A DNA stretch of 53,592 bases, filler included, from Jimgerdemannia flammicorona (Eukaryota): NCBI GenBank assembly GCA_003990765.1. It is 3 parts of 3 records of this genome, joined end to end, with 100 filler letters (N's around TTAATTAATTAA, not from the genome) between each part and the next. Parts side by side here need not be neighbours in the genome. Positions count along the whole stretch, not along the records: positions 1 to 17,798 come from RBNJ01002404.1; 2 more parts are not named here. The stretch is one strand, 5' to 3'. Under the pieces are notes generated by a model, which was not told the origin of the DNA, ran no database searches, and was given only the letters and a program-made list of their open reading frames with translations. The number at the start of each line of letters is the position of its first letter. Within the stretch, counting starts at the first letter, position 1. Below, in pieces: positions 2,940 to 49,247 of the stretch. A program made the position numbers and the translations under genes.

Positions 2940-4260
2940 TGGTTCATTGGGGCTGGCAAGAAAGTACATCAACATTGTTGTGGGCTTTTCCTGCTTTGTG
3001 GATGATGGTGATCTTGTAATCCTGAAGGATAAGAATCCAGTAGGCTAGGATTCCAGTAGGTTCCTTATAGTTGAATAGCTATTTGAGAGCTATATGGTCT
3101 GTGATCAGGGTGAACCTTTTTCTGATAAGATAATGCTTGAACAGAGTGACCACCCATATGACTATAAGGTATTCTAGTTTGGTGCTACCATAGTTCATCT
3201 GTTGCTAATTGGTAGCTCTGCTTATATAAGCTATCACATAGTGCTGTTGATCAGGTCTTTCTTGGGCTAGAACTGCTCCTAGGCCATCTTCAGAGACATC
3301 TATATACAAGATGAATGGCTTCTGTAGATTGGGGCATATAAGGATTAGAGGGGTAGTTATGTGGTTCTTGAGTTCTTTAAAGGCTTTTTCTTATGATTCT
3401 GTCCATTTGAATGGTACTTCTTTCTTGAGAAGAATTTGGATTGGGGCAGCGATTTGGGCAAAGTTCTTGATAAGCCTTCTATAGTAGGATACTAGTATCA
3501 GAAATGATAGTGTTTCCTTCAGGATCTTGAGTACTGGCCAATTGTTGATCTTCTTGGTTTTCTTTGGGTCTGCATGGGTTTCTTCTTTCGAGACTATAAA
3601 TCTAAGAAATTCAAGTTTCTGTTTCCCAAAGTAGCATTTCTTTACATTCAATATTAAGTAGTTCTTGTGAGTAAGCTTGAAGAATTCTTCTAGGTAGTAC
3701 AGGTGTTCTTCAAAATTTGCTGAATAGATATTGGAATCATCCATATATACAATCAGACAGCAGTGGATCAAGAGGACATAGACTGAATTCATCATCCTCT
3801 GGAAAGTGGGGGGTATATTGCAAAGTCCAAAGGGCATTCAGAGGTACTCAAAGTTTTCCTAGAGCAAGAAAGTCTGTCTTTGGTTGTCCTTGGGGTCCAT
3901 GGAGATCTCATGGAATCCCATGAAGAGGTCCATACTGCTGAAGTATCTGGCATCTTGTAACTGATCCAAAAGGTCATCAATTCTGGGCAAAGGATAGGTA
4001 TCCTTTTTGGTGACTGAATTGAGTTTCCTGTAATCCACACAGAGTCTCCATCCTCCCATCTTTGATACAATAAGTATATAGTCTAGGGGCTGGTAGAGGG
4101 TCAGATAACCCCATTATCTAAGAGTTCTTAAATGTGCTCCTTTTCAAATATTTTCAAGTAATGGGATATTCTATAGAGTTTCTGTCAGATGGGTGTTGTA
4201 TTTTCTGTATTTATGCTGTAGTGATATGATGGATTGTATAGCAGGTTGCCATAATTAGTA
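2940..4260 (-). pseudogene. Gypsy reverse transcriptase and RNase H
   Basis: WRLCVDYRKLNSVTKKDTYPLPRIDDLLDQL; MPFGLCNIPPTFQRMMN; IVYMDD; downstream FILYIDVSEDGLGAVLAQ and FTLITDHIALK. Confidence 0.93.
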
Positions 4261-8863: not shown

Positions 8864-9284
8864 TATAATATGCCCAGCTCAATGGAGACAGATTATAAGA
8901 TTAGAGGTTGATGTAGTTCAGCTTGAGCTCCCAGTTACTTTGTTAAAAGTAACAAAATGTTCTTGGTGTTTAGTGGTATTATAGTCAAGATCTGGATACT
9001 GTATAAGCAGTTTCCTTTTTGGGACAAGTTCTTGGATATAGTAGTAGTTTGTGTGAGTGGTTTCCTTCTTGGGTGGTGGTTAATTTGTGTGTAGCATGAG
9101 TGGGTTCCTTATTCGGGTCAACTGAGAATGCCACAATTTTGTATAGCATAATGATCTCTGTATGACTGTCTGACAATTTAATAGTTCTCTTTCTTGAGTG
9201 ACAGATGATCTCTGTGTAGTGTGATAATCTCCAAAAGTATGTGATTTCTGATAGATGGCTTGATTTGGTGTGGCTTCCCTGAAA
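8864..9284 (-). repeat. Gypsy 5' LTR, inner part (split by hAT)
   Basis: Lies between the PBS and the hAT TSD; joins 15707-16469 to give a ~1.18-kb LTR. Confidence 0.7.
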
Positions 9285-9294
9285 TAGTGCTCCG

Positions 9295-9720
9295 AACGAG
9301 TCAATTCGAATCAAATCCGGATTCGATTCGTCACATGATGGTTTGATTCGAATCTCAAATCCGAAGCCATCTGGATCAACTCGGATTTAATCTGAATCGC
9401 CCCATCCAAATTGCCCCATCCGAATCACCCATCCAAACCACCCCAATCTGAATCACTCAATCTGAATCACTCAATCCGAATCACCCCATCCGAATCATCC
9501 CATCCGAATCACCCATCTGAATCACCCATCCAAACCACTCCAATCTGAACCACTCAATCTGAATCACTCAATCTGAATCACTCAATCCGAATCACTCAAT
9601 CCGAATCACTCAATTTGAATCCTCCAATTCGAATCCTCCAATTCTAATTCTCCAATTCGAATCCTTCAATCCGAATCTTCATCCGAATCCTTCAACCAAA
9701 TCCTCTAATCCAAATCCTCC
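9295..9720 (+). repeat. Left subterminal repeats (CCGAATC / CTGAATC / CCAAATC array)
   Basis: Dozens of ~10-11-bp units next to the TIR; the variants are CpG-decay forms. Typical of hAT transposase binding arrays. Confidence 0.85.
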
Positions 9721-9813
9721 ACATGACTCATATGCCAGATGCGTCCACAACACAATACACACACATGCATACACACACATGCATACATATACCATGCAAA
9801 CACACAAACACAC

Positions 9814-12421
9814 ATGTCGACAGATCAGTCTTCAACAGTTCACAGTACCGATGATGCTTTAAGTCAAACATCCCTGATAGTTCCACATCTTCCATGCAAT
9901 CCTCACTCCGAAATCTGGCAATATTATACTATGTAAGATAGGAGATGTTGTTGTTTGTAATTATTGCAGGTAAAAAATTAAGACACACCTATTGACACTT
10001 TGTTTGACAAACACATGATATTGTTTTGACACACACATGATATTGTTTCATCCACCCTCATGAACTGCACCAGCCAGAAGTTCAAAATGCTTAGGGGTAT
10101 GACTTCGAACCTGAATTGACACATAAAAGACAAGAACTCTGACAAAATCAAAAAGAACACGGAGACAAATAAAATCGACATCCAAGCTGTGGTGGGTACA
10201 TTTATCCGATTGCCTGACCATTTCTGTACCAACAATGCCATTTAATCAAAAATTTTAGCTATACTCTTTAGTAGAATTTCGAAATCAGCTCATTCGCTGG
10301 ATTGTGTGCACAGACCAGCCATTCACAACCATCGAGAGTGATCAATTGCACAGCATCTTTGGCCTCCTCAAGCATGATTTATATTTGCCAAGTGCCGATA
10401 CTATTTGCAAAGATGTCCTGGAGGCCTATAGGAAGGAGCACGACAATCTCCACCAGACACTTCAGGTAAAATAAGGGCAGCACCATGACCTTTGCAAGCT
10501 GAATTATACAAAAGAGCTCACCAATTTAACCTCACATTCAATAAGCAGAATTCGGCAGGCAAAATTTCATTTATGATCAACACATGGACATCCCCCAATG
10601 CAATTTCATTTCTGGGCATTACCGGTCATTAGATTGACCTCGATTGGCAGCTTAGATCTCTCACTCTTGACTTCGTCAAACTTGCTGGCCCTCATTCTGG
10701 AGACAACATCGCAGATGCTTTTATTAGTTGTATCCAGGAGCTTGGGATCACCACCAAGGTAAAAAAGGGGGGCTTGCTGTCAGGTCGGCATTTTGAGGGA
10801 GGTCCTAAACCAAACCAGATTTTATTGGTTACTTATTTTCACATAAATTTGTCAACCAAATATTTTAAGTACAGATTTTGGCCATTACGATGGACAATGC
10901 CACAAACAACTCAACATTTTTCCAAGGTTTAGCGGCTAGCCTCAAACAGGAAAACATGGCCTTCAGTGCAGAAAGCTGCCGTGTGCAATGCCAGGCCCAC
11001 GTACTGAACCTTGCTGTTCAGGACTATCTTATGCACATAGACAAAACATCCGAGAGAGGAGGGGCCCTGAGTATAATTTCCAAGCTGCGCAAACTGGTTG
11101 TGTTGGTCCGATCGTCCCAACAATGACGAGACAAATTCACTGCACAGTGTAGGGCAATCAGTTTAGCCCCGAAAGAGCTTATAGTGGACGTCTGTACACA
11201 TTGTAACTCAACATTTGCAATGATCCAGCATGTGCTGGAGTTTGCTGTAGTATGCATCCTTTTTTTCTTCAGTTGGCTGAAGCAACTGTTTCGGATAATG
11301 GAAGATTTATTTAAAAAAAAAAAAAAAAAGCCAATAGATTCAACAATGGCTGCCAACAAGGAAATACGGGCCGAGGCTCTAGGTGAAAGTGAGTGGGACA
11401 TACTTAGGAATGTTGTCAGAGTTTTGGAAGTAAGTGGTGGTTGCCCTGGCTCCACACTCATTTTGTCTGTCTCTGCACAGTGCAACACCTCACCACATAT
11501 AACTGCCAGTGTTTCAACGATTGTACGAAGGATATAGTCAAACAAACGACCCTGACAATAAGCTCTGCGATACCGGTATACAACCTTCTGATTGACTGGC
11601 TAGAGGACAAGCTCGAGGACAGGCTGGAGGGTTGTGGTGATTTACAGTTATGCCCGGATCAGAGAGATGCCATGGTGGTTGCTCTAAGCAAGCTTAGAAA
11701 ATACTACACCCAAACAGATACTGCCATATACTCAATCAGTACAGGTATGTCAATGTCGGCGTGTGGCCATTGCCCCTTCCAAAACAGAGGAAACCCTGCA
11801 AAAACTCACTCTCCTTTTCTTCGAACAGTGCTGGACCCATGCTTAAAGCTACAATACCATAAAGATCAGGGCTGGGAGCAGCACTTCATTGAGAGAACCA
11901 AGCAGGCCATAATTGAAGTGTACTGGAAAAACTACGCACCACCGCAAGGTTCTGGCCAAAGTCCAGATGAATATGCCAAGGGATCCCTCCTGTCCCACAT
12001 TTACTTCGGCAGAAAGAGGAAGAGGGAGCCATCAGTGGAAGAGCTGCTGTCAATAGATGAACTTACCATTTACCTCGCCAGCGACCACGTGGTCCTACTG
12101 AAGGGCATGGAGGTGCTCAACTGGTGGAAGGTGGGTTGTCAGGTGGGCGTTGGGCCAATTTAACCCACCAATCTAACCCACCAATCTAACCCACCAATCT
12201 AACACTGCTCTACCCACTGGGGCGTGCAGCTGCGTCAAACGGACTTCCCCAGCCTGTGTGGTATGGCTCGGGACTACCTGGCGATTCCTGCCTCCAGCGC
12301 TCCCATCGAGCGGGTGTTCTCAGGTGGGGTGGACCTCATTGCCCCAAAGAGGTGTGTGCTGAATGCTGAGACAATCCGGGCATGTATGTGTCTGAAGTCT
12401 TGGTGGGGCTTGGGCCGCTAA
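9814..12421 (+). pseudogene. hAT transposase (BED finger, DDE core, C-terminal dimerisation domain), spliced, with stops
   Basis: SEIWQYY (BED-like); KISFMINTWTS...FLGITGH; AITMDNATNN; CQAHVLNLAVQ; LDPCLKL; FPSLCGMARDYLAIPASSAPIERVFS...IRACMCLKSW. Several GT-AG introns. Confidence 0.93.
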
Positions 12422-12534
12422 AATTTGGTGGGTCCGCAGATAAGTTGGTTGGCCTTGTGGAATATTTAATACCTTTCAAATTAATAAAAAGGAAAAAAAA
12501 CCTGAGGACTCGGCCTGGAGTTTGTGGCCAAAGT

Positions 12535-12890
12535 GGGGCGGGGTTGGCGGCAGCGGTGGCAGAGGGGGCGCGCAAGGGGCAGCCCAAGCTGCCAGTGTCT
12601 GGGTCGGTGGGCAGGTTGGTGGGCGGGTTGGCGGAGGGAGCGCGCAAAATTTGCGGCCCTCTGCCAGCAGCAAGGGGCAGCCCCAAGCCACAAGTGTCCA
12701 GGTCGGGGGGGAGGCGGAGGGAGTGTGCAAAATTTGCAGCCCTCCGCCAGCAGCGAGGGGCAGCTCCAAGCTGTCAGCATCTGGGTCAGTGGGCGGGGTC
12801 AGTTGGCGGGCAGGGCAGGTGGAGGGAGCATGTAAAATTTGCGGCCCTCTGCCAGTGGCATAGGGGCAGCCCCAAGCCGCCAAGGAGTCC
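12535..12890. repeat. GC-rich imperfect tandem repeats between the two hAT genes
   Basis: 3-4 copies of ggcggagggagcgcgcaaaatttgcggccctctgccag...ggggcagccccaagc. Confidence 0.75.
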
Positions 12891-13003
12891 AGAGTGGAGG
12901 GTGCTTCTGGCGGTCGGAGGGTGCTTCTGGTGGTCGAAGGGCGTTTCCAGCAGTCGAAGTTGCTGGTTCGGGTCCCACAGGCCGAGGGGCCAGTAGGGCC
13001 CTG

Positions 13004-13118
13004 CATAACGGCTAAGCTAGTGCTACATAACGGCTAAGCTAGTGCTACATAATGGCTAAGCTAGTGCTATATAATGGCTAAGCTAGTGCTACATAATGGC
13101 TAAGCTAGTGCTACATAA
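13004..13118. repeat. 22-bp tandem repeat x5 (CATAACGGCTAAGCTAGTGCTA)
   Basis: Five near-perfect head-to-tail units with no spacers. Confidence 0.95.
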
Positions 13119-13158
13119 GAGGCACCTGGCCCAACCCCCCTACATAAGACTGCCTCCC

Positions 13159-15325
13159 TCACAAAAACTGCTCCACCCACCAGTCCCAGGCCTTGATGAG
13201 TCTGTCATCCATTGTGAGTGCGACGACTATTGTGTCCGAGCTCTCCTTGAAGGCGACAGTGCTATGGTGGTCATGTGGTTGGAATAGGACGGCTGTGTTG
13301 GCCGCAAATGGGACCCCGAAACCATAGATGAGGTTGTACCAGACTCCGCCGCTATCCTCCCAGGTTGGGCCCTTCCTTTCCAGGATGTAAAACATTACTG
13401 GGGTGATGTTGTTGTCTGTGTGTGTGGGCAGAGAAAGGTTGCGCCTGACATATCCTGATATGATGCAAGCATACAGTTAGGTGAACCCTTGGCCCAGGAC
13501 CTCATACTACCAGGCTGTGCTGGTGGATGCCTGCCCTTGGTCCAGCCCTGGGAGCCCCAGCTTGGAAACCTGCCAAAACGGACGGCAACTGGTCAGTCCT
13601 TTTTGCGTTTGGGGGGCAGAAACCCCCCGGGCTGCAGAAACCCCCCGGGCTGTAGCACCCCAAAAAAGCAGAGCTCCTCACCTCATACGGTATGCTAAAT
13701 TGCACTAAGAATGTACATACAGCTGCGCCGAGATCACCACCAAGCTGGCCTGCCATATGCTCTACCAATCTGCTCAAAGAACCCCAGATCTTAGCCACCA
13801 TTGCCGCACAGGCCATGTCATGCTTGCACGCAGTTTGCTCTTCGACGGCACTTCTAAAGTTCCGGTAGGGGTACAGAATCTTGTGCATCCCTGGAATTGT
13901 ATCAAAAAGAGTATGTCGGTGAAAAGTGTGATTTATCTGAGGAGGGGTTAAAAAAAAAAGGAAGAGGGAGACGAGTGCAGGGGATTTCGGAACCCACCCT
14001 TTGCCAGTGTTGCAGTATACCCAATTCCCATCCAAACCCCCCCTCCTTGCTTTTTTCACCCCCTCTTCTCTGCTACCCAGTATTTGATGCAATCCTCGCA
14101 AATCTCGTTGATGTGGCAGCGAAGCTCATTGCCATAGATGTTCCTTACCACCATCACAACCACCTCTCCATGTTCATTAATAAAGATATGGTTCTCTTTG
14201 TCATTGGTTACTCCTGCTGGCCAATGGACCTCTTGGTCGAGTATGATTGGCTCTGATTCGAATGTAGACCCCCAAGCCTTGATGACGATGCTGGTACTGC
14301 TCATGCTGAACATCTTGCCCTTGAATTTCTCTATTTGATCAGACGCCGGACATGGTTGAACTTGGGTAACTTTGAACTCTCCTTTCCAATGGAACTGAGC
14401 CCTGATCTGAGGGACCGAGATAAGTATGTGGATGGGTTGCGTGCAGGCGGGTGGCATGCGGGCGGGTTGCGGGTGGGTTGCGGGCGGGTTGCATGTGGGC
14501 AGATTGCGTGCGGGCAGGCGGGTTGCATGCAGATGGGTTGCGTGCGGGCGGGCAGGTTGCGTGCGGACAGATTGCATGTGGGTTGCATGTGGGTGTGGGT
14601 GTTTTTTAGGGGGAGACAATGTAAAAATGAAATTAAATAAAACATAGAGATGGGTATTTCAGAAAAAGAGCATGAGTGAGTGAGCTGCATGCCAATGAGT
14701 TACATGCCGATGAGTTGCACGCTGACGAGTTGCATGAGTTGCACAAGAATTGCTCACAAAGGCTTGCTTCTGTTCCTTTTGAGACCTCCGCCATGCGATG
14801 CATTGACTCAACAGCTCAGCTACCAAAGGCATGCCCTGCAACATCCACCAGCCTTTCTTCATCTTGATCAGATGTTGCAAATAAAGTCGGCAGATCTCGC
14901 CGTAGAGCTGTGGACCCTAAGAAAAGCACAAGGTGAATTGGGTTGTGCTGGGGAAGTTTAAATAAATAAATACAAGTAAACAAGTGGCAGCCAAGTGAGC
15001 AACCTACATCTACTATCAGCTACTCCAAAAAGGCTGCTGCATACATAGCTGTGAGGTCTGTGAATTCTGAGGTCCAAAGGGCCGCCATGAGTTGTTGCCG
15101 GAATTCTCCCTCATCCCCACCATTGCCATTGCCACCACCACCACCATTACCCCTTTGGCTCTCGATGAGCAGCTTGTCTGCTGTCCATATGAGAAAGAAT
15201 CTAACATTGTCAGCAGAGAGTGCATTTCCACCTCGAATACTCCCTCTTTTGACAATCATTACAGGGTGAAAAATGAGTAGACTGGACCAATATACAAATT
15301 AAGGGCTGCTGTTTTGTTTGCTCAT
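13159..15325 (-). pseudogene. hAT cargo gene: ~5 exons, ~480 aa, C-terminal TET/JBP-like 2OG-Fe(II) dioxygenase domain; a few nonsense changes
   Basis: Exons joined by GT-AG: MIVKRG...FLE*LIVD / GPQLYGEICRL...KQAF / IRAQFHWKG...GGVWMGIGYTA / GMHKILYPY...PYE / VLGQGFT*LYACIISGYVRRNLSLPTHTDNNITPVMFYILERKGPTWEDSGGVWYNLIYGFGVPFAANTAVLFQPHDHHSTVAF...IVVALTMD. HxD at 13414-13422; distal H near 13265. Confidence 0.7.
14430..14745. repeat. Intronic short-unit repeats (GGGTTGCGTGCGGGC; GAGTTGCAT/C) in the cargo gene
   Basis: Direct reading; largely absent from the matching intron of the second copy near 27.8 kb. Confidence 0.8.
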
Positions 15326-15459
15326 GATGTGGCAGGAAAGAACAAAGAAAAAGAATAAAGAAAAGAGAGGGAACAAAGGAAAGGGTGATGTCACCAAAGT
15401 TCAGCAGAAAAAAAAAACAAAAGTGAAATGAACAAAAGAAAGGGTGATGTCACCAAAGA

Positions 15460-15690
15460 TTTCAATCCGAATGGATCAATCCGGATGGATCAATCCAGAT
15501 GGATCAATCCAGATGGATCAATCTGGATGGATCATCTGGATGGATCAATCCGGATGGATCAATCCGGATGGATCAAACTGGATCAATCCAGATCAATCTG
15601 GATCAGATCACGAGACCAATCCGAGTTGATTCGAATCCATCACATGACAAATATGAATTGAATCTCATCTGGATCAACTCCATTCATTCG
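15460..15690. repeat. Right subterminal repeats (GGATCAATCC(G/A)GAT array)
   Basis: ~13-bp units next to the right TIR. Confidence 0.85.
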
Positions 15691-15706
15691 GAGCACTACC
15701 CTGAAA

Positions 15707-16469
15707 TGGTGGCTTATTGGGAATTATACTAGTGGTGGATGACTCAATAACTCAGGCTCACTGAGAACAAATAACTCAGATATCATAGAAACTCAGATGG
15801 CACAAATCAGGTTATTCTGGGAATGCAGATAACTTGAAAATAATGGCTTCAACTGAGAATTAACTCAGATGGCATGGATTCTTCCTGAATTGGCAGCTTC
15901 AACTGGGAAACAGCAGCAAAGTTCTTTCTTGAACTTGGGCAGCAAATCTTCAGGCTTATCTGACAAGTAAATCAAAAATGGACTCTTCTTTATATCAGAA
16001 AGTGGACCAGAGTGGAAGAGAAGAGAACCAAGCTCACAACTTCTTGGCAATAGCTTATTGGCAGGCATATCTCCTAAGTATTGTAATTCAATTCCTTTAG
16101 GATCAAGTGGCTTTTGGCAGATGTTTCTCCTAAGTATACCAGATAATTGACTTTTGCTTTGGTTTGTATTCAACTTTTGGACTGAGGTTTATTCACTCTT
16201 ATCTCTGGGGTAATTTATACATTATGTTTGCTATCTAGTTACTATCTGGCTAACTATAGATTTGCTATTTATGGTGTGTTTGGGTGGACAGCCACTGTCT
16301 GGCAGACAGTCACTATCCAGGGGATAGCTACTGTTCACATTATTCCCTTCTTTGGCCATCTGGTTATTTATATATTTTTCCGCAGTATTGGTTGCTAATT
16401 ACTATACTATACTAATGTTTACATCAACTGGTTAGGTTTTGAGATTGCTACATTTTGTGGTTTGTCACA
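15707..16469 (-). repeat. Gypsy 5' LTR, outer part
   Basis: Begins TGTGACA on the minus strand at 16469; homologous to 547-1257. Confidence 0.88.
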
Positions 16470-16514
16470 CTATGTATTTTTGTCATCTGTATCATATATA
16501 GTTGTACATATACC

Positions 16515-16735
16515 ATTTCTCCTATTTGGGAGCAAGATAACATACAGTCTTGTTCAGGTATTTCTTCTACTTACCTGAGAGTGAGACAATAGTCTTATAT
16601 AGGTATTTGTGGTTTCTTCTATCTAGGAGTGAGATAATATAGTTTTATATAGATATTTGTAGTTTCTCCTATCTGGGAGTAAGACAACATAGGCTTATAT
16701 AGGCATTTCTCTTACTTATCTAGAAGAAAGACATC
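16515..16735. repeat. Degenerate ~50-bp tandem repeat in AT-rich relic sequence
   Basis: ~5 units of tttctcctatctgggagtgagacaatagtcttatataggtattt. Confidence 0.6.
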
Positions 16736-17798
16736 TTCTCTTAATACTCAAATACCACCTTTATATCAATGCTCCTAAGAAGCCTACAACCAAAAAAAAA
16801 ATCCAAAACATATACAAAATAGATGGTAAAGGTGAGGAAATATAATATTCAGACCTGAGGTATATATTTTATTTTTAAACCAAAGATAGAGAAAAAAAAA
16901 AAATAGAGAGATTAAAAGATATACTATATATACATTCCTACTAGCCATTATTTTGGAGTGAGATATAAACTCTATGTTATATATACATTTCTACCAGTTA
17001 TTATTTTAGGTTGAGATATAAATCCTATGCCAAAGAACTATGAAAGTATGTGACAAATTTAGCCCGATTCTAGCTACCAGTTAACTTTAGTTAATAAGGA
17101 GAGACAAATTGATGTGAAGACATTCAGACAGATGATAACTCTCTTATATATTTTCATAGTGAACCAGACAGTCAATGAGTATATTGTTATCAATAAGTTA
17201 CAACTATATTACAATTACTGCAATAGTAAGGAGTTCATGAGTTTCCAGTTTGGGCTATATAAGTAACAGAATAATCTACTAAAGCTATCCTGTAATCTCT
17301 ATTGCCCACATTACCAAATATAAGAAAAACTCACTTAGCAGCTCCTGGAGACTCTTGTATTATTCTTTGAATACCTATATGGACTGTTTTAGTACTATTT
17401 TTCAGATATCTTTCAGTGGTATTGTAATATTCAAATTAATCTATATCCAGGCAATGATGAGTTAGAGATACTGTAGTTCTAGACATGACTATTCTGGCTA
17501 TAGTATTGTATAATATTGACATCTTGCAAGCCTGAACAGGGGCAGCTAAAATTCTATCCAAATAAGAGTAAAGACCCAAAGGGCTTAGCAACTATTATTG
17601 TCTTTGGCTATTATACTGATAAAGGTGAGGTAGTACTAGCCAAATATTAGATAGTGATTAGCTGTCTAGTTGATACAGTATATATAATAAGAGAGATTGA
17701 GATATATACCGGTGTGTAGGAGGAAAGTAGTATTCTCTTATTCTGTTTACCAATAAACATATTTTGGAGCTTTGAATTGAAGTTTTTTTTTTTTTTTT

Positions 17799-17898
17799 NN
17801 NNNNNNNNNNNNNNNNNNNNNNNNNNNNNNNNNNNNNNNNNNTTAATTAATTAANNNNNNNNNNNNNNNNNNNNNNNNNNNNNNNNNNNNNNNNNNNN
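17799..17898. other. Artificial contig linker N44-TTAATTAATTAA-N44
   Basis: Exactly 100 bp; the core has stops in all six frames; identical to 35696-35795. Confidence 0.97.
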
Positions 17899-17919
17899 GG
17901 GGGGGGGGGGGGGGGGGGG

Positions 17920-23990: not shown

Positions 23991-25455
23991 TTGTGGTGCT
24001 CAAGCTCTCAACATGCACCGCGGTATGCAGGGTTCGGACAGCGTGATACATACAGCACACCGGGTGCGGTATATTCGAGGTACATTTTTACGACGTCGTC
24101 TAGAAGGGCCTCATAGGCTTTGAGCATGCGGAGGTCGAGGTAGACTTCGAGGTTCATGAACTGTGGGATGGTGACGATTTCAGCAATACTTGCTTGTCCG
24201 GAGTGCATTTGGTCAGGAAGAGCGGAAGCGTCTTCCCCATATGTCATAAGGCGCGAGATGGCTCGTTCTGCGTGTATCCCAGGAGGAGGAAGAGGAAGGA
24301 GCAGGAAGTGAGTATCGAATCCGTTATACTCTGTTCCGCGATGAGTCACAAATCCACAACCACGCGAGCCACAAGCCCAACCCACATTACGCCACCAATC
24401 CCCACCTCCTCCCGGTCCACAACCCACACAACCCGCAAACCAACGCACCTTCTTCAATAAGACTAGTGTTAATAGAGTACCTCTTGGGATAAACGTGGTT
24501 TTCAAACGCTGACTAGTCGAGGGTGATAGCAACTGGCAAGCGCACTCGAAAACATAACCGCTGCAGACAAATGCCACCCAATAACGACAGAGAATGACCG
24601 CCTGAGAGACGAAAGCCAGCAACGTCGCATTACGGAAACCGCCCGTATTGAAGAGGCTGAGCAGCGTACACCGAAGAGTCGTCTACGATGAGAATAGTAA
24701 GAACAGGAATGGCATTTTGACATTCAATCGGCTTGCGGCTTACGCGGTTTGCAGTTGTGGCTTGCGGCTCGTATTGCAAGGGCACGTGCTCCAAAATCGA
24801 CGCGTCCAAATTAAGACGTCACCATCGTGTCATTTTAGATGTCGTGGGAATATATCATGACTGTGAAGCGATTGGGTAATTGTCTTGTATCGAGTGCACG
24901 TGACCGTCGGATTTTTAGTGCAACACGTCCAACAATGAGCTTAATAATAAAAAATATAACTTTATAGACTAACAGAAAACTCTTTTTATTTTAATTCTAT
25001 AGAGAGATTTTTAAGAGTAATTAAAGATTAACTCACAGTGAGATATATAGTTTTAAGTCAATATTTTATGAGCTAAATATAGTAAATCAGAGGTCAATAA
25101 GCCAACCATAGTTAGCCAATCAGGTCAGGCAAGTAAATTTATCAGTGAGAAAAAATAGTTACTCTATATGGAAAACATATAAGAAAATATACATATAAAA
25201 AAATATACAATTAAAATAAAAATAAATAGATTTTATAAGTCTTGAAATACTAATAATAATAATAATAATAATAATAAAAACCACATTCAAGTAAACTTGA
25301 TATACCTCTATAAGAGTTATATAGAATTACTTTTTACTAAGATATATAACTGAAATATATTGAATTCTATTATTATTTTTATAATTAAAAATTTATAAAT
25401 AAAATAAAAATATTAAATATATTTTTATAATCTTAAAAAAAAATAGTTATATAAT

Positions 25456-26036
25456 TAGTGCTCTGAATGAGTCAATCTGAATGGGAATTGAATCTCATCC
25501 AGATGGATTCGAATCAACCATTGTTTTGATTTCCAAATTAGACAATTAAATGTTTATATCAATAACTTGATGAATAATCATCCAAATTTAATAATCTTAG
25601 TATTATTTGAAAGCCCTTAATAAGACCTTCTAATGATATCAAGAATATTAAAATCTAATTATACATTGCCGAGATATTAAGGAAACCATTCTATTTGACA
25701 AAATTTCCAAAATCAGCAAATTGAATAATTTTCAAAATTAGTAATTCAGACATTTTTCTTCATAAATCAGCAATATATGATCTGATTTCAATATTCTTGA
25801 TGTCATTATATAGACCTTATTAAAGGCTTTTAAATGATACTAAGATTATCAAATTTGGATGATTATTCACCAAATTATTAATATAAATATTTAATTATCT
25901 AATTTGGAAATCAAAACAAAAGTTGATTCCAATCTATCTAGATGGGATTTGAATCTCATTCAAGTTGATCTGAATGGAATTCAATCTGAATCAATCTGAA
26001 TCCAATTTGGATTAAATTGATATATTAGGAGCACTA
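25456..26036. mobile_element. hAT-family MITE (581 bp) with long internal foldback
   Basis: TAGTGCTC...GAGCACTA ends; perfect TSD TATATAAT at 25448-25455 and 26037-26044; ~25520-25655 is inverted at ~25783-25922. Confidence 0.9.
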
Positions 26037-26867
26037 TATATAATAGTTTGGTATAAATTTATAAAATATTATATTAATATAGTTTTTTTTTTTTATAAAA
26101 AATAAGAAATTTTAATAAAAATTAATAATAGATATATAGTAATTATAATATTTACTAATATAAAGAAATGTATATAAAACTCAGTTATATTTTTATTATA
26201 ATAATTGATCTAAATTAGTAATATGAATCAAGAGAATAGATAATTAATTGTGATATCTAAATCTAATTTTCAAATATAGTATAGTGTAAGAGAGTACTTT
26301 ATTAAGATACTATTATATAGTTCTGAAAGAGTTTTCTAGATATTCTAGATATTCTAGAAGACTATTTTCTTAAGATCAAGATCAATTTCATATGGAGTAT
26401 ATTCTTTATACTTATTGATTTCAAGATTTGATTGATGTCTCAACCAAAGTTCTTTCTTAGACTTATTTTAGATATTCAGGATTTTCTTTATTTTAAAAGA
26501 TTCAAAAAACTAAGACTAGCTTAGTTGAATTGGTATATTACTATAGATAATATCTAATTAGAAAATTTCTAGATCTAGTTAGTAGTGAGATTTAATATAA
26601 TATAGATTTACTTAAAAGTAGTTTATGGATTATTAAATAGTTTTATTTACTATTTATAATATTACTATTGACTAATACTAAGAGTAGTATATCAAGAGAT
26701 AATTATATAAGAAAATATTCATTTGATTCTTATTAATGTTCTTATTTATATTTCTGAGATCTAGAGGAGAGAATATTTATACTAATGAGAGGCTATCTAG
26801 ACTAGGCTAAATATAGATATAGTACTTTAGTATCTAATGAGTTAGAATATAGTCACATAGTACAAAG

Positions 26868-28535
26868 TAGTGCTCCAAATAGATATAATTTATCCAGATG
26901 GGATTCAATTCAGATTTATTATATATGTAATAGATTTGAATCAACTTAGATTAGTTTTATAATCTGATCTAGATTAATCTGGATTGATCTGGATCATTTG
27001 AAATCTTTAGTAATATCACCCTTTCTTTATCTTTAATAATATCACTCTTTTTTTATCTTTGGTGATATCATTCTTTTTTTATTCTCTCTTTTTTTGTTCT
27101 TTCTTTTTTTATTCATTTTGATACTCTTTTTTATTTCTTCTACCATATAACAAACAAATAAATAGCAGCCCTTAATTATACATTAGTCTACTTATTTTTT
27201 TACCTAATAATTGACAAAAGAGAGAATATTCAAAGTAGAAAAGCACTCTCTGTTGATAATGTTAAATTCTTTCTCATGTAAACAGTATATAAGCTACTTA
27301 TTGAGAGTCAAAGTAGTAATAATAATGGTGATGGTAATGGTGATGAAGATGAGAGAAAATTCCAGCAATAACCCACAGTAATTCTTCAGACCTTGGAATT
27401 CATAAACCTCATAGCTATATATATGTATCAGTCTTTTTAGAGCAGTCAATAGTAGATATAGATTGTCTTTTTGCTACTACATTTAAATTCCCACAATACA
27501 ACTAAGTTTATTTTATACTGTTTCTCTTTTTCTTAGAGTCTACAGCTCTATAGCAAGATCTGTCAACTTTATTTACAATATCTAGTCAAGATAAAGAAAG
27601 GCTAGAGAATATTGTAAGATATATCTTTGGTAACTGAGTTGTTAAGTTAATATATTATATAGTAGAGATCTCAAAAGAATTAGAAGCCTTTATGAGCAAT
27701 CTTATATAACTCATTTGTATGCAACTCATCTATATGCAACTCATTCTCACACTTTTTTTCTAAATACTTATCTATATTTTATTTAACTTCATTTTATATA
27801 TTTTCCTCTAAAAACTCCTATATAATACTTATATATAATCTGTCCACATACTTAACTCAGCTCACTACTCAGATTAAGGCTCAGTTCTACTACAGAGGAG
27901 AATTCAAAGTTACCTAAGTTTGATCACATCTAGCATCAAATCAAATAGAGAAATTCAAGAGTAAGTTATTTAGTATAAGTATTACCAGTATTACTATTAA
28001 AGCTTGGAGGTCTATATTCAAATCAGAGTTAATCATTCTTGATCAAGGAACCCATTGATCTGCTGGAGTATTCAATGATGAAAAGAACTATATTATTATT
28101 AACAAATATAGAGAGGTTGTTACAGTGATAGTAAGAAATCTCTATGATAATAAGCTTCATTACTATATTAATAAGGTTTACAAAAATTGCATCAAATACT
28201 AAGTGGTAGGAAAGAGAGAGTATAAAATACAGAGAAGGAGAGTTTGAACAGGAATTAGATATAATGCAACATTGGTACAAGGTGGATTTTCTGGAGTTTT
28301 TTTTCTGAAATCCTCTATATTTATCTCCTTATTTTTGAGATTTTCTTTACTAATCTATTCTTGTTAAATTTTCAGAGATGTACAGGATTCTGTACTGTTA
28401 TCAGAACTTTAGAAGTATTATTAAAGAATAAGCTACATATATGTGAGCATAACATGGCCTATATAGTAATAGTGGCCATAATCTGAAGTTCTTTAAGTAG
28501 ATTGCTGGACCAAATAGCAGACCAGCTTAGTGGTG
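26868..28535 (-). mobile_element. Truncated, hypermutated second copy of the hAT right end and cargo gene exons 1-4
   Basis: Starts TAGTGCTCC. Colinear with the reverse complement of 15698 to ~13737, with mostly C>T/G>A differences. Confidence 0.9.
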
Positions 28536-28554
28536 TTTTTTTTTTTTTTTTTTT

Positions 28555-28860
28555 TTTTTTTTCTATATGCTTTTATTTATTTATTATTATTTTTATAAAA
28601 TACACTCATACTATGTGCCCCGCGAGGGAATGCAACTTGGGTATTCACGTATTTAGGATACCTGACCATTTCAGTATATGTACCCCTCATTCACTCCCCT
28701 CATTCGCACACGCCGAAGCGAATGAGGGGGGCGAATAAAGGGGGCAAATGAGGTGGGGGGCCGAATGAGGTGGGCCGAATAAGGTGGGGAGAATGAGGAG
28801 GGCGAGGAGGGTAAGAGCGAATACGACCAAATGCGATCCGCCCTGAACTGTTGCTTGCCC
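28555..28860. repeat. Dispersed non-coding repeat, copy B
   Basis: Homologous to 21155-21420; contains the hairpin CCCCTCATTCGC-N10-GCGAATGAGGGG and a GAAT(G/A)AGG array. Confidence 0.7.
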
Positions 28861-29261
28861 GCCTAGTGTCACTTCACACGAAACGCAGGAGTGTGCAAGC
28901 TGGCATGATGCCTATTCTTATCCGGTCTAAACGACTCGGAGGCGGATGTATTGCCAGTACCCGTTTAAATATATCTATTCTCGTCGGCCTCAGTACCATT
29001 TTCTATTGCTATGCGTTATATATACCATTATTCCTTGACCTTGGTTCGGATTCCGGTTAACGAGTCCTTAATTTAGGAAGAAAAATGAGATTTGATCGGA
29101 AACGGGATGCCTGGTCTGTGTTTTCTGTTTGTTGAAAAGACATCCAGGGGGCGTTGATGAATATTCTGACGCCCTAATATTTTCGCATCTGGCTCTGTTC
29201 GTGGCTGGCGAAACAACAAACTGGGTGGCTTGCGGCCCTTAACACAAATCCGAAAACCTTC

Positions 29262-29907
29262 ATGATCCTCCTCCGCAACACCCAGCGTATCGTCAAGGTC
29301 TGCACCAAGACCTGCAAAAAGGACATCGCGCAGCTGCTCGCGCTCGCACAGTACCCTGACTGGGATCTTGGCGTGCACCTCTCTGGCGATCGGTTCGTGC
29401 GAAAACTCAACGCGGAGTTCCGGGGCCTGGATCGGCCGACTGACATCCTGTCGTTCCCCTTCCACCAGGTAAAAATAGAACGTCGCTCCTCCTGATTAAG
29501 TACCCAAATTCTCTTTACAATTGGCGCTAAACCAGCCGACAGGCCATCCGCCCGGGCGTCCTCCCCGCCCCCGTCACGGACGACGATCGGAACCTCGGCG
29601 ACATGTTCATCGCGATGCCGTTCGTGCAACGGTACTGTGGCTACGAAGGCGAGACGCTCGAGAAACGGTTGCCCGTTCTATTCTGCCATGGAATATTCCA
29701 TATGCTTGGATACGACCATCAGACGGACAGCGAGTACGAGAAGGTAAGGTTGGTAGCTCTGAGTCTGGTTGCTTGGGTTGTTTCGATACGTGACGCTAAT
29801 TTGAATTTTGCTTTCAGATGCGTGAGAAGGAGGAGGGTGTATTAGCGGAGTTCTGGAAGTGGAAGAAAGTGGAGGAAAATAATGGAAATGGGGATATAGA
29901 TGCTTAA
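29262..29907 (+). CDS. ybeY: YbeY metal-dependent endoribonuclease (UPF0054), 165 aa; exons 29262-29468, 29543-29743, 29818-29907
   Basis: RKLNAEFRGLDRPTDILSFP; NLGDMFI; HGIFHMLGYDH (H3xH5xH zinc motif). Both introns are phase 0 and the splice keeps frame to the TAA. Confidence 0.95.
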
Positions 29908-30698
29908 TAGTCTACGTTGAATATTCGGAAACATAATATAACCCGGTTCTCCCCCCTTTCCGTCATGTCGCGTATATACGGCAAATAATTACAATATGAA
30001 GTCACGGGAAACATCATCGTGCGGAAAGACTGTCCATTTCGCATGCATGAAAACGCTGTCCTTTCACCGATACAGTATGTCATTCACATTTACTTGTGCT
30101 TATGAGGGTTGGCTGCGCGAGAGGTGCGCAAGAGCTCGCGCCTTCACCAATCAAACGTGCGGAGATGAGCAGAACCGCTACAATGTCTGGTGGGTCTTTG
30201 TTGTGGGCCCGAGATATGCAACGGTGACATTCCCCAAGGACCACCGGGGTATCAGAAAATGGCATTGTTCCTGTGGCTATTTAGGGGATAAAGTAAACGA
30301 CGATCGCCATTGAGCCGAGAACGGACAAAGAAATCGTCCCGATACACACATGATACTAACGGTCTACTCGAAAGACATTACGGAAGCGCTGCGAGAGACG
30401 ATGCCAACCGCATTTACCAGATGGTGTTCTCACAGAGGTCTGACAAGAAATGCTTGTCAAACCGCCGACGGATATATTCTTCCGAAAAATATGTGGATTG
30501 TTTGGAGTTTAATCAACCACTTGATTTGATTTCAAAATCGGCTAGAAATTTGCTCGTATTTTCCGAACGTTCTGTACGCTAAATAGCATCCTTTCTTCAA
30601 AATTCATTGTAAATCAAAACTAAAAGCCTGATTGAAATAGCTATGTATACAGGGGATGTTATATTCAATAAATGGTTTGCTTTTCCCTATATGTGTTT

Positions 30699-31644
30699 CT
30701 ATTGACCAACTTCGAGAAACTCCTCCATATCATCGGCTACGAATCCATTCAGCGCAATCTCCTCATACGGCGGCGGCAACCTATGTTCATCTCCGACCTC
30801 ATCAGCTACCCCTTGCCTCGCCACACCCTGCGACGACATCGGCCCGCTATACAGCGGCAACGACGTGACCGACGCCGTGTCGACAAGACTTTGTCCGTAA
30901 AAGTTCATCCTCCTCTCCCTCAGTATCCCGCCCCTATTCCCAAGTACAGGTTCGGTGTAATACCTCTGCAACGATAGCGACCGTATGGGCGACGCCGGGA
31001 CACTACCATCTCCTGAACTCGTCCAATCCCGCGGCGCTCCGGGACTCCACGACATGTACCTCCGCACCCCGAGCCTATCGCGCGCCGGCCACAGCCTGAA
31101 ACTCCTCGGGAATAGTAGCAGCGCACGCTCCAACGCGGAGCCGACCTCGCCCAGCATGGCGCCATTTTGTATCACCAGTGTTCTGTAGCCGGTGTTCAGA
31201 CTCAAGCCCATGTGCCTCAAGGTATCCTTGCGGCGGTCGAAAGGCCGGATGACGACCATGACGGGCCCGAATGGCGTGCGGCTGAGCATCGCCTCCAGAA
31301 CGGAGCCGCCGGCGCCCTCGATGGTCTTGCAGGAGCGAACGGGCCGCACTTCGATGGTAATGCGGTCTTCGTCCGGAGGGATACGCCATAGCGTTGTGGC
31401 CGGACGGAGCTCGACAGGGATTGTTCGATAAGTGAGACAGAAATCGATGATGTGGCGGCGTCGGCCTAGGAGAGCGAAGTTGGTGTTATCGTTGAAGGAG
31501 AGGCCAATTTGAGAGAGCTCTGGGGGCTGGATGAGTTGGCCTAGACCTGTTGGGTTAGAAAGAATGACAATGATGAGTATGGATGGAGCCGTTTTAGTAG
31601 TCGAGTAATGGACTACACGCACCTGTTAGGTATCCGTATCGCAT
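30699..31644 (-). CDS. Hypothetical 289-aa protein with C-terminal PPPY motif; exons 31644-31623 and 31546-30699
   Basis: Long CpG-rich ORF. A GTGCGT...CTAAC...CAG intron joins MRYGYLT in frame to GLGQLIQ. Confidence 0.65.
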
Positions 31645-32120
31645 GGTTGTTTACGATTTATGTTTCAAAGTGTGTTCGACCATGTATCGAATGCGCAAGT
31701 ATACTCTAGGAGAACAAAGACCCCGATATTCAAAAGAACGTCGTACGTAAACAAATACAAATGATTCAATGATTCGATAAAAACCTGAACTTTGTGACAT
31801 ACAGACATGCAATGCATACACCTGCGCCACCTGTGATCCAAGGCAGTAAATCAGGGTGCTTTTGCAGCACCAAACGATCCCGTGATAGTGGGGATGATGA
31901 TGGCTGGGACTTTAAGACAGCAAGAATAGCGGCCAAAAAATGGGGACTCGCGACCGGGTGGGCGTAATGACCTATTGCCTTGCTAGCTTGGGTGGGTGAT
32001 CTTTCCTATTTGCGTCATGCAACATTCGACGGTACATAAAGGAGACGACGGAGCACGCAATTATCATACCAATTCTCCTACGAGCTGATGAATGATGTAT
32101 CTGATCAAACAGATGTTAAC

Positions 32121-32206
<86 letters not shown>

Positions 32207-32406
32207 AGAGAGAGAGAGAGACTTCTACTTTGACAATTCGGTTTAACATAAGCTATAAGCCATTCTGAAATCCGCCACATCGTTAAACATGCCACATTTG
32301 CATTTACTAAATGTTCCTCATTAATCAATCATTCAATTTTGATATCGACAAACGCCATATTTCATTCCTCATTTTCGACTCCCACCCATATAATTTAATT
32401 GAACAA

Positions 32407-34180
32407 TTATGGTTTTTTACCGTACGCGTAATAAAAGCTCGACCAACTCCTGGAATCGTCAAATTTACAAATTGCAAGTGCATCAGTACAGATTGTCGAT
32501 CCATTCTAAAACACTGGCCAACCTCTACTCACCTATGCCGCATGCACTCAAGCGGGATTTGCTCGGTGACGGCGTCGTACTCAGCGTCGTCGCACCCCAT
32601 CAGCGGTTTGAGGAACGACCGAAACCCATCAAATCCGAGCCGGAGGCTGTTTATGTGCAGCTCGCCCAGCCGCCCATGCCAGCCAATGGGAAAGGACGCC
32701 CAGTCGGCCGTCACGTCTTGGAGGTGCGGGGTCAGCAGTGCGCCTAGGTCTTCGACCAACCTAGTGTCTACACCGCGGGATTTGATGGCTGTTGCGACTG
32801 GAGTGGGATGGATTGGTAGGGAGGGTGAACGTATACGCGTGTCTGAGGTTAGGATAATCGGGTAATTGATACAGGATACTCGCGGGCATTTACGTATCGC
32901 TGAAAGTGTGGGCCTCCGTTGTGTAGAGTTAGCCCTGCCTCGACTGCGAAATGAAGAATTCAGCCTTTTATTGTCAGTTAAGACCAAACCATTGACAAAT
33001 ATTACAACATCACCCTCCACGAACCACTTACCCAATTCCACATAACCCCCAGGCTTCGTAACGCGCACAAGCTCCGCAATCGCCCGATCCCACTGCGCGG
33101 GCGTGAAGGCAGTGACCATAAACCTTTTCACGGTGGCGATTGGTTGGTAGCATCACATTTCAGGAACAAATACGCGTGCGGAGAAGGTTTCACTTTAACG
33201 ATCTTACAAAAGAGACCGCGTGTTACCTTTGAAAAACGTAATCGAAGGTGTTGTCGGCAAACGGAAGCCCTTCGAGCGTGTTCGCGCTCTCGAAGGAACA
33301 GTTGGATGGGACGTCGTCCTGGGGAAAGATATCCGCAATATCGGTGCCTGTGAAAAATGGGGTTGAATGGCCCGGGTTGAATGGCCCAGGTTGAAGACGT
33401 TTCCATACGACAAATTTCATTCATAACGTAACAGGAAAAATCACCTATAAACGTGGAATCTGGAAAGTCGTTGGACATTTCCTACCAGATAATTTTATAT
33501 TTAGCATTCGACGTACCGAAACTCGAAACGCATTGAACGTCCAAATGACCTGGATGAAAATCAATTCTTACTAATATCCACGCCCCCGGCCCGCATCTTT
33601 GAAAGCTTTCTCCAGCATCTCCGATTACGCCAACTTACCCAACGTCGAGAACCTTGATGCCTTCTTGCAGCTCATCTTCGACAGGCGCATTAAAGTTTCT
33701 GCGGGGCCAACATCAGATAAAATATCTTAGCCTGTGTTTTATTTGTACAGCGGACGCGCATGTATTTCCACATGCATACCCATGGAATAGATGCCTAGAG
33801 GTTGGCGTAAGAGTAAATCAAACGAACCGGGTTTAAGACATCAGAGCTCTCCCACACATGGATGATACGAAGAGCAAAGAGCACGCATACCTAACGCTCA
33901 CGTGTTGTACCTCCAACCTACGAATAAAACAACCAGATTAACCTTTTGTCATCCCTGCCATCCACAGCACCCATTCGCCCCGACCGGTCAAGACGGGCAC
34001 ATATATACATAATTACCTATCGCTCTCCTCCCCATCAATGGGCAACAAATATTTTGCTCGGTCCAAGAACCGGCGCCCGCCTAAGCCGCCCTTGTAGACG
34101 TTAAAGTCCGGAGGTAGTTCGGACGCGGCGAATTCCTCGCTACCTTTAGCACTGTTGTTGGTGTTCATCGAGTCTTCCAT
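32407..34180 (-). CDS. Class I SAM-dependent methyltransferase (fungal Methyltransf_25/LaeA-like family), multi-exon
   Basis: KYLLPIDGEESDRLEVQH; GNFNAPVEDELQEGIKVLDVGCGPGAWILEMSNDFPDSTFIGTDI; GLPFADNTFDYVFQRFM; ELVRVTKPGGYVEL; ends YYAYGKKP*. Confidence 0.92.
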
Positions 34181-35418
34181 CCTGGGATTCAATTTGAAAG
34201 AACCCCTTAAAAAGTGGCAATAGGGATGATCTCGATATCGGCTGGAACACAGATGGCCGAATTTAGGTGGCTGCAGAATATGTCATAATGAAATCCACAT
34301 TGTCGCATTGTTTTAAAGCGAACGAACCCCGCCGGCAAGGGGCAGCCTGTCATATGGCAAGGGGATACCTTTCCAAAGTAGTTTGGGCTAAGGTTGGGTG
34401 TGCTTTGGCTATCTTTACAATAACTCTTTGCCTGTGGTGGTAGTAAAACAAAAATGGTTTGCATAATACGCCAAACACCATCAGAATTAGAATTGCGTGA
34501 AGCGAAAGCTTCGATCTGCGACCGATAGGCTTCCGGTCGGCGTTGCACAATAGATACGTTCTGTTATAATAAATTAATTAAGCATGACCCGTCAAACACG
34601 TGGATTGCCGGATCGCCGCGCTTTTCAGCAGTTTGGATACACGGGTCCACCCATCCTTACCTCTCTGAGAAAGCGCGTGCTGGCGAGGCCCAGCATCGTC
34701 GGCATCCTCTGTTACCCAGCCGTCGCCGCCGATGTGCGCCATCACGTTTTCCTGCCTAGTTTTATGAGTCGGTCGGGGGACATGAAAATAACTGGTACAT
34801 GTGTTATGCTTCTGCTGCATAAATTCTAATCTCCACACATAGACGCTAAGGATTTATTGTTTTATTGCATGCATGTTTGGGACATAGAAAACAGCCTGCG
34901 ATGGATGGACACCAACCGCATCACCTCCCTCAACCTGGACGATCGCAGGACCCAATCAACCTCTATCACCTCATCAAAGAATTTACTGCCACCACGCCGT
35001 TATCTTCGCCCGCCACCGCCTCCCCAGACCCTCTGCATCCCCAGTTATCCTAGACACAAATCGGACTGTAGCATCTCTTTTCTTCAACGGCTCCCTTCAT
35101 CGTCACGACATTTTCTGGATCTTCCTGCATCTCGGGATTGACGGTGTCGCAGCGAGGACAGTGGAGGTCGTGAGGGTTGTGGATATGAGTGGGATGGAGG
35201 GGCACGGGAATGCGTTGGAGATATTTCTGAGGAAATTGCTTAGTAGATGTATAAAAAACCTCATTTCGATAGATCCAAAGAGATATTAACGCCAAAAAAA
35301 AAAAAAAAAAAAGCTGTATAAATTCGGAGTGCGAAGTAATCGTTTTTCTGCATTGCCGTTGTTCATACAGCATTTGAGCCACATTCACACAACCACCCTG
35401 TGGAACTCGACATGGACG

Positions 35419-35667: not shown

Positions 35668-35695
35668 GTCTAATCGTGTACAAAGTCATGTTGGG

Positions 35696-35795
35696 NNNNN
35701 NNNNNNNNNNNNNNNNNNNNNNNNNNNNNNNNNNNNNNNTTAATTAATTAANNNNNNNNNNNNNNNNNNNNNNNNNNNNNNNNNNNNNNNNNNNN
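35696..35795. other. Artificial contig linker N44-TTAATTAATTAA-N44
   Basis: Same 100-bp linker as 17799-17898. Confidence 0.97.

Positions 35796-49177: not shown

Positions 49178-49247
<70 letters not shown>

Follow-up and report, generated by a model that had tools for sequence, protein, structure and literature searches.

A decayed hAT transposon in Jimgerdemannia flammicorona DNA with a putative TET/JBP-like dioxygenase gene as cargo

A stretch of DNA from Jimgerdemannia flammicorona (the window, 53,592 nucleotides at its full length, along which all positions below are counted) had been read, from its letters, as containing at 9285-15698 a hAT transposon that carries, besides its transposase, a convergent gene for a dioxygenase of the TET/JBP kind. 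Is this element a hAT transposon, does the second gene (the cargo) belong to it, and could the cargo product modify bases in DNA in a way that protects the element from silencing? We addressed these questions by analysis of the ends, copies and genes of the element and by searches for relatives of the cargo. The reading that we favour overall, and regard as reasonably probable, is that of an inactivated autonomous hAT element whose cargo encodes a TET/JBP-kind dioxygenase, similar to the PE-type enzymes described from other transposons, with HxD at the putative active site, for which oxidation of 5-methylcytosine (5mC) would be the most likely role.

The element, its copies and its two genes

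The element (9285-15698) is bounded by terminal inverted repeats (TIRs) at 9285-9316 on the plus and 15667-15698 on the minus strand. These share a perfect 12-nt core, present as TAGTGCTCCGAA at 9285-9296 and as its exact reverse complement at 15687-15698, and extend to 32 nt with 72% complementarity. The same 8-mer, CCCTGAAA, is found directly outside both ends, at 9277-9284 and 15699-15706, as expected of a target-site duplication (TSD). The ends begin with TAGTG, which we take to be compatible with the YARNG start of hAT TIRs. Arrays of a 14-nt unit, read on the plus strand, lie inside each end, with about 20 copies (CCAATCCGAATCAC-like) at 9389-9721 and about eight copies of TCAATCCGGATGGA at 15462-15623; these subterminal repeats are presumed to be binding sites of the transposase.

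When the 12-nt TIR core was sought with up to two mismatches, seven sites were found in the window against 2.99 expected, a number reached in only 2 of 100 shuffles. Six of these sites formed three inverted pairs, each with an 8-bp duplication outside, and the seventh was the end of a truncated copy, indicating that the number and the pairing of the sites are not due to chance. Two of the pairs bound non-autonomous derivatives (miniature inverted-repeat transposable elements, MITEs) with the same TIRs, one of 581 bp at 25456-26036 with the TSD TATATAAT and the other of 334 bp at 50706-51039 with the TSD TGCCTTAG / TGCCTTGG (7 of 8 positions matching). A TSD of 8 bp was therefore seen in all three complete insertions.

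The transposase gene was found on the plus strand as a pseudogene at 9814-12421, with the ATG at 9814, the stop codon at 12421 and about eight exons, whose borders were placed by eye with the help of GT..AG sites and of the open frames. The exons are 9814-10194 (BED-finger-like), 10259-10465, 10549-10758, 10875-11243, 11331-11429, 11510-11746, 11828-12130 and 12230-12421. The last exon encodes the C-terminal dimerisation domain of hAT transposases (12230-12418, plus strand), and matched Pfam PF05699 (Dimer_Tnp_hAT) at E 1.4e-14 and 54.1 bits (cut-off 21.4), and at E 2.4e-14 in a second run. The remaining six transposase segments matched no Pfam family, including none for the RNase-H-like DDE core or the BED zinc finger; strings resembling hAT transposases (..NTWTSPNAISFLGITGH(stop)ID.., ..CQAHVLNLAV.. 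and ..THCNST..) were recognised there by eye only. Seven in-frame stops interrupt the gene. The first, BED-finger-like exon has five of them, the third has a TAG at 10630 (..ITGH(stop)ID..) and the fourth a TGA at 11124. The TAG at 10630 occupies what is presumably the position of a Trp in hAT transposases.

The cargo gene lies on the minus strand, convergent with the transposase, and comprises about 470 codons starting some 400 bp inside the right end. The spacer between the two genes (12440-13140) is rich in G+C and contains internal direct repeats as well as 5.2 tandem copies of a 22-nt unit at 13004-13118. The exon model was built from tblastn matches and GT..AG borders: P0003, a 374-residue relative described below, gave collinear matches on the minus strand at 14220-13996, 13891-13682 and 13566-13210. 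The last exon (13162-13569, minus strand) holds the HxD...H pattern and ends with a stop codon after ...WVEQFL. Upstream of it, between introns at 13570-13681 and 13892-13995, is an exon free of stops (GMHKILYPYRNF...IPYE, 13682-13891), which is preceded by an exon reading ..NHIFINEHGEVVVMVVRN..GIGYTATLAKG (13996-14409) with one TGA at 14058. The 5' exons fall within 14760-15298, also on the minus strand; 14760-14916 is fairly clear, and the first exon may be 15023-15255, with its start at MIVKRG, but the borders are uncertain.

The last exon of the cargo passes through a TAG (13509) and a TAA (13479). As far as the alignment extends over these positions, they are occupied by Gln in two relatives, P0001 and P0002, and the two stops are therefore C-to-T changes in CAG or CAA codons. 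The peptide quoted in the sequence-only reading was indeed the minus-strand open reading frame (ORF) at 13159-13476, with HxD and a distal His about 50 residues on; however, the exon proved to be longer, running from 13569 to 13162 with both stops inside it. The few nonsense changes mentioned there now amount to three in the homology-supported cargo exons (TAG 13509, TAA 13479 and TGA 14058) besides the seven in the transposase, and both genes carry such changes of the C-to-T or G-to-A kind. Both genes of 9285-15698 are pseudogenes, and this copy is dead.

The hallmarks of the hAT superfamily found here are the 8-bp TSD, the short TIRs and the C-terminal dimerisation domain, and it is virtually certain that 9285-15698 is a hAT-superfamily element. 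The TAGTGCTCCGAA ends, the CCCTGAAA duplication and the PF05699 match bear out the original description of TIRs and an 8-bp TSD enclosing a plus-strand hAT transposase and a convergent, multi-exon gene on the minus strand. The element is thus an old, inactivated copy of an autonomous hAT DNA transposon in a fungal-type genome.

Does the cargo belong to the transposon? A truncated sister copy at 26868-28560 (plus strand) retains a TIR, the subterminal repeats and the 5' two-thirds of the cargo, and has neither the last cargo exon nor a transposase. It is 68-70% identical to the main copy and has 28% G+C; the 5' cargo region is kept, with 14603-15465 matching 27814-26998 at 68%. The order from TIR through subterminal repeats to the 5' end of the cargo is identical in the sister copy and at the right end of the main copy. 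This arrangement is therefore older than the split of the two copies and does not reflect a one-off nested insertion, and the cargo is very probably a stable part of the transposon family.

The cargo family and its putative active site

The cargo family is very small. Among 1.84 billion representative proteins, a phmmer search with the last exon gave five matches at E<=0.001, four of which were real (E 6.7e-51 to 1.6e-07); the fifth, a repeat protein, was taken as spurious. The four are P0001 (136 residues, 80% identity, E 6.7e-51), P0002 (134 residues, 50% identity), P0003 (374 residues, from a 1702-nt contig) and P0004 (128 residues). A word-based homologue search found nothing with the last exon or with the middle exon, and its sole find with P0003 was P0006 (259 residues). 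All five proteins come from metagenome or run assemblies, and their names are uninformative. Among metagenome contigs, 23 pattern matches led to two confirmed loci, L001 and L002. Both have 34% G+C and contain a three-exon version of the cargo gene (733-1956 in L001, 888-2107 in L002), and their identity to each other is 99%. No cargo locus was confirmed among 15 pattern matches in prokaryotic genome contigs or 42 in viral contigs. A search of sequencing runs listed eight, each with a partial share (0.06-0.23), of which seven were soil metagenomes and one came from an organism; no RNA run was among them.

The window gene and L001 have two intron positions in common, with the same phases: one intron interrupts the Gly codon that precedes M-H (phase 1), and the other follows Y-[E/L] (phase 0). 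Since these introns are shared at only about 30% protein identity, the comparison indicates an old eukaryotic gene family rather than a recent bacterial acquisition. The ORF of P0003 runs uninterrupted across both intron positions, and this protein may come from a gene that lacks introns, possibly a retro-copy, or that is built in another way. The cluster of P0004 has 28 members at >=90% identity (P0004 and P0007-P0020 among the proteins listed). In the listed full-length members, 13 in number, HVD occurs in 11 and HVN in two, and one has HIYD instead of HVHG. These variants are of the G-to-A or C-to-T kind, and L002 has an in-frame stop. The P0004 cluster is a multi-copy family that decays by transitions, as transposon genes do.

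The proposed Fe(II) ligands of the cargo lie in an H-T-D motif (H19 and D21 of the ORF; 13414-13422, minus strand) that aligns with H283 and D285 of P0003. The distal His (H71; 13264-13266, minus strand) lies 50 residues past D21 and aligns with H335 of P0003. In a six-row alignment of the family (A2), H283 and H335 were invariant in all six rows and the Asp was present in five, with Asn in P0004. The HxD and distal His, whose conservation the sequence-only reading had put forward as a check, are thus kept across the family. Eleven more residues were invariant (T289, V291, R298, G300, G307, Y311, Y315, G316, V319, N324 and F329 in P0003), and the invariant residues group at the putative active site despite identities of 30-50%. 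As a sequence pattern, the cargo family therefore has the HxD...H iron-binding triad of TET/JBP dioxygenases. A candidate for the Arg that binds 2-oxoglutarate was found in the window copy (R92 of the ORF, in DDRL; 13201-13203, minus strand). P0001, P0002 and P0003 have an Arg in the same alignment column, P0006 has one a column before it, and L001 and P0004 have none; the Arg of the window copy was matched by eye to the RL that closes the PE-type domain. A candidate for the Arg that the original statement called not evident is thus present in the window copy.

Is the cargo then a member of the TET/JBP superfamily? A survey published in December 2025 (Kojima 2025, PMC12730594) reported TET/JBP genes in complete DNA transposons of 11 lineages, from three fungal classes, and defined three types, called PU, AG and PE. 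The PE type was described from Helitron, IS3EU, Zisupton, EnSpm and Plavaka elements of Pezizomycetes and Agaricales, with HxE as its hallmark. When we compared the cargo family by eye with nine PE-type strings printed in Table S1 of that paper, five collinear blocks could be recognised. The first three are N.I..D....E.V..V.R, G.....G[YW]SAG against ..SAGYT, and H.[DE]; the fourth is GG.F[FY]...[YH]G..[VI]....N..V.[WF].....HGT[ST]L, and the fifth is GL[ST]..T..RL. L001 and the string of a Morchella Helitron are alike at about 13 of the 34 positions of the fourth block, counted by eye.

Language-model comparisons point in the same direction. In the ESM Atlas, the clusters nearest to the last exon (recognition 2926) were unnamed Basidiomycota proteins (0.92), and these were accompanied by a phage cluster (0.90) with PF12851 (Tet_JBP) in 11% of its members and by a cluster named 'Tet-like 2OG-Fe(II) oxygenase' (0.86) with PF20515 (2OG-FeII_Oxy_6) in 97%. 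The top match of P0003 (0.96, with 209 of 256 features in common) was a cluster with PF20515 in 15% of its members.

Several results weigh against the assignment. No Pfam family was matched, at E values up to 10, by the cargo exons, P0001-P0004, P0006 or the L001 exons, PF12851 and PF20515 included, and the double-stranded beta-helix fold that had been read into the cargo was thus not recovered by hidden Markov model (HMM) search. A PHROG search of the cargo gave nothing meaningful. Neither the family profile nor P0003 matched PDB sequences, and P0006 gave only a chance match to an antibody (E 0.63). The AlphaFold2 models had a mean pLDDT (predicted local distance difference test) of 36.3 with the six-row and 37.4 with an 11-row alignment, and were unusable; a Foldseek search of the PDB with the pLDDT-36 model gave no row at E<=0.001, and the fifth row, CcTet (8jkk_D, E 2.7), is non-significant, comes from an unusable model and carries no weight. 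The ESM Atlas recognition of P0003 (2142) is below the mark of 2300, so that its score of 0.96 is weak. In addition, the link to the PE type is a by-eye alignment that carries no computed score, the PE hallmark HxE is replaced by HxD in five of the six aligned rows, the L001/P0004 lineage lacks the candidate Arg, the 9285-15698 copy is a pseudogene, and the carrier of the metagenome relatives is not visible, there being no hAT signal or recognised transposase within L001 or L002 (contigs of 2.9-3.7 kb).

The negative HMM and PDB searches and the unusable models would also be expected if the cargo were a cupin or 2-oxoglutarate-type oxygenase, or another beta-rich protein, unrelated to nucleic-acid modification, its HxD...H pattern and PE likeness being coincidental or too distant to be meaningful. 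Even for the PE-type proteins, the HHpred match to known TETs has an E of no better than 1.4, to CMD1 (PMC12730594). We nevertheless consider an unrelated oxygenase rather improbable, as the five PE-type blocks are collinear by eye, every ESM Atlas match with a named family is Tet_JBP or Tet-like, and the cargo resembles the known kind in being carried by a transposon and present in many copies. In favour of a TET/JBP-like enzyme, then, are the conserved 2-His-1-carboxylate pattern, the ESM Atlas leads and the by-eye PE likeness; an HMM or structure match is what it lacks. On the strength of the language-model leads (the PF20515 and PF12851 clusters), the by-eye PE-type alignment and the transposon context, we place the cargo in the TET/JBP superfamily as a probable member.

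CpG erosion and the possible role of the cargo

We compared CpG contents within the window. The observed/expected ratio of CpG was 1.12 in a region of host-like genes (29000-36000), 0.49 in the main copy (9285-15698), 0.00 in the sister copy (26868-28560) and 0.06-0.24 in other AT-rich blocks (16001-17800, 25001-26867 and 49001-52000); the AT-rich blocks have 20-32% G+C. Depletion of CpG was confined to repeats in the regions compared. From the main to the sister copy, changes of C to T (162) and G to A (160) far outnumbered those of T to C (24) and A to G (36), and the fraction of C sites changed to T was 0.44 in CpG, 0.42 in CpA, 0.30 in CpC and 0.22 in CpT. The subterminal repeats are affected as well: 12 of 26 core heptamers of the left array keep CG and 14 read TG or CA, and 7 of 10 units of the right array have lost their CpG to TG or CA. 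The repeats are thus CpG-eroded, as had been noted earlier, and so is the CpG of the element's own subterminal motif.

Classical, CpA-specific repeat-induced point mutation (RIP) was considered as the sole cause and is not supported, as all C contexts are affected and the (CpA+TpG)/(ApC+GpT) ratio of the AT-rich copy is 1.19. The pattern fits repeat-targeted methylation of cytosines followed by deamination, or a RIP-like process that extends beyond CpA.

How might the element have worked while it was intact? By what is known of hAT biology, a transposase with a BED finger and a DDE core would bind the 14-nt subterminal repeats, cut at the TAGTGCTC ends and reinsert the element, with an 8-bp target duplication as the result. 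By analogy with CcTET and in line with the hypothesis of Kojima (2025), the cargo product would be an Fe(II)-dependent dioxygenase, a diverged one of the TET/JBP kind that probably uses 2-oxoglutarate. Such an enzyme could oxidise 5mC on the DNA of the element, and would thereby counter both silencing by methylation and the C-to-T decay that follows. That the cargo serves in anti-silencing through oxidation of 5mC specifically is a suggestion by analogy that we put forward tentatively, as somewhat less than an even chance.

The same kind of enzyme could instead hypermodify a base, marking the element rather than erasing 5mC, either as CMD1 does, which attaches a glyceryl group to 5mC with vitamin C, or as JBP does, which hydroxylates thymine. 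According to Kojima (2025; PMC12730594), CMD1 is among the nearest solved relatives of the PE and PU types, and activities other than 5mC oxidation are left possible. The usual Arg is not uniform in the cargo family, which could fit another co-substrate. With no glycosyltransferase or other modifying gene between the TIRs, we hold hypermodification to be unlikely, and 5mC oxidation stays the preferred activity of the TET/JBP-kind reading. That the cargo is a mere passenger, a host gene captured once by this hAT lineage and decaying neutrally since, would agree with the broken state of both cargo copies in the window and with the lack of a hAT beside the metagenome relatives, but is quite improbable given that the arrangement is retained in two copies 30% apart, that elsewhere the relatives occur in many copies, most of which retain HxD and H, that the invariant residues lie together at the putative active site in proteins of 30-50% identity, and that repeated capture and retention of TET/JBP genes by transposons has a published precedent (PMC12730594).

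A transposon with its own demethylase-like enzyme would possess a direct counter-measure to genome defence. If the favoured reading is right, this one locus displays such a counter-measure that failed, with stops of the C-to-T type, eroded CpGs in its repeats and a sister copy reduced to 28% G+C with no CpG left.

Other features of the window were examined by Pfam searches of 18 further ORFs, in which the only families matched were RVT_1 and YbeY, each twice, and HEAT, once and weakly. A gene for a YbeY-like endoribonuclease with two or three exons (PF02130, E 1.7e-07 and 1.5e-13; 29178-29845, plus strand) lies directly downstream of the truncated copy. The 5' ORF of an element resembling a long interspersed nuclear element (LINE) is present in two inverted copies, at 36391-38349 (minus strand) and 40781-44289 (plus strand), with peptides that are similar by eye (..RVKG..EEEEDLLEALE..); the plus-strand copy runs on into a reverse transcriptase (RVT_1, E 1.4e-16, 43510-44289). 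Strong G/C strand skew was seen at 36-37 kb and 40-47 kb. A reverse-transcriptase fragment of the long terminal repeat (LTR) retrotransposon type, with YMDD, occurs at 3391-3837 on the minus strand (RVT_1, E 3.4e-12). All three minus frames are open over about 1 kb at 46571-47607, where the translation shows Leu/Pro/Cys-rich repeats (LPILP, SCPSC); this stretch is probably no gene but a short tandem repeat that has degenerated. At about 17840-17900, N bases (part of 176 in the window) break an ORF beside a proline run.

Comparison with known transposons and TET/JBP genes

Canonical hAT elements (Ac, hobo, Tam3 and fungal hAT) resemble the window element in their 8-bp TSD, short TIRs, subterminal repeats, C-terminal dimerisation domain and MITE derivatives. 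They differ in that they encode a transposase only, whereas the window element has a second, convergent gene.

The sequence-only reading knew of no TET/JBP gene borne by a hAT, and this has been overtaken by the TET/JBP-carrying hAT7 elements published in December 2025. The PU type was described from rusts, on seven lineages that include hAT7 (PMC12730594). The TET-carrying hAT7 of Puccinia is like the window element in being a hAT with a TET/JBP-type gene as its second ORF, for which escape from methylation silencing is proposed. It differs in its TSD of 7 bp and in printed consensus sequences that start with CAACGGTGGG or similar, as opposed to the 8-bp TSD in three of three insertions and the TAGTGCTCCGAA ends of the window element. 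A 7-bp TSD extended by one chance base would be possible for the main copy alone; it is unlikely to have occurred three times. The identification of the window element as a hAT7 was accordingly rejected, both its TSD length and its termini being of another kind. The hAT7 enzyme, being of the PU type (..PPHKDHND..HGIVKM..RLG[LM]S in the printed strings), also has no block-by-block likeness to the window cargo. In the literature covered, which leaves subscription journals outside, no hAT with an 8-bp TSD and a TET-like gene was described apart from the Kojima paper.

CcTET of Coprinopsis cinerea, which belongs to the AG type carried by Kyakuja and Zisupton elements, has shown activity on 5mC, and on N6-methyladenine, in biochemical experiments (summarised in PMC12730594). 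It shares with the cargo an association with fungal transposons and the HxD...H triad, and is our functional model. The cargo differs from it in sequence type, there being no detectable sequence match, and in its carrier, which is a hAT rather than Kyakuja.

The cargo appears, by eye, to be closest to the PE-type enzymes, with HxD in place of HxE. Besides the five blocks that look collinear by eye, the PE type has in common with the cargo family that it is too distant from known TETs for ordinary sequence searches; according to the same paper, structure predictions for PE-type proteins gave matches to CMD1, NgTET and CcTET with E values under 1e-5 (PMC12730594). The difference lies in the hallmark itself, HxE as against the H-T-D or H-V-D of the window copy, P0001-P0003, P0006 and L001, and in the carrier, as no PE-type gene on a hAT is reported in the abstract of that paper and the window cargo is hAT-borne.

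What was already in print by December 2025 is the existence of hAT-borne TET/JBP genes and the hypothesis that transposon TET/JBP genes act in anti-silencing (PMC12730594, as cited above). New here are a different hAT lineage, with an 8-bp TSD and TAGTGCTC ends, and a seemingly PE-like subtype with HxD that escapes Pfam and has relatives known from metagenomes only. The value of the locus is therefore incremental, the concept and the hAT precedent having been published and the copy being dead; what the window adds is another hAT lineage and an enzyme subtype missed by standard domain searches. Because this subtype escapes such searches, surveys based on Pfam or BLAST will undercount cargo of this kind. 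We suggest, as a possibility somewhat short of an even chance, that the cargo represents a fourth transposon TET/JBP type, an HxD-keeping sister of the PE type that is invisible to Pfam, carried by an 8-bp-TSD hAT unrelated to the hAT7 of rusts, and multi-copy in a soil eukaryote of 34% G+C perhaps outside the three fungal classes known so far. If this were true, the capture of demethylase-like genes by transposons would be more frequent than the 2025 survey indicates, and spread over a larger number of fungal lineages.

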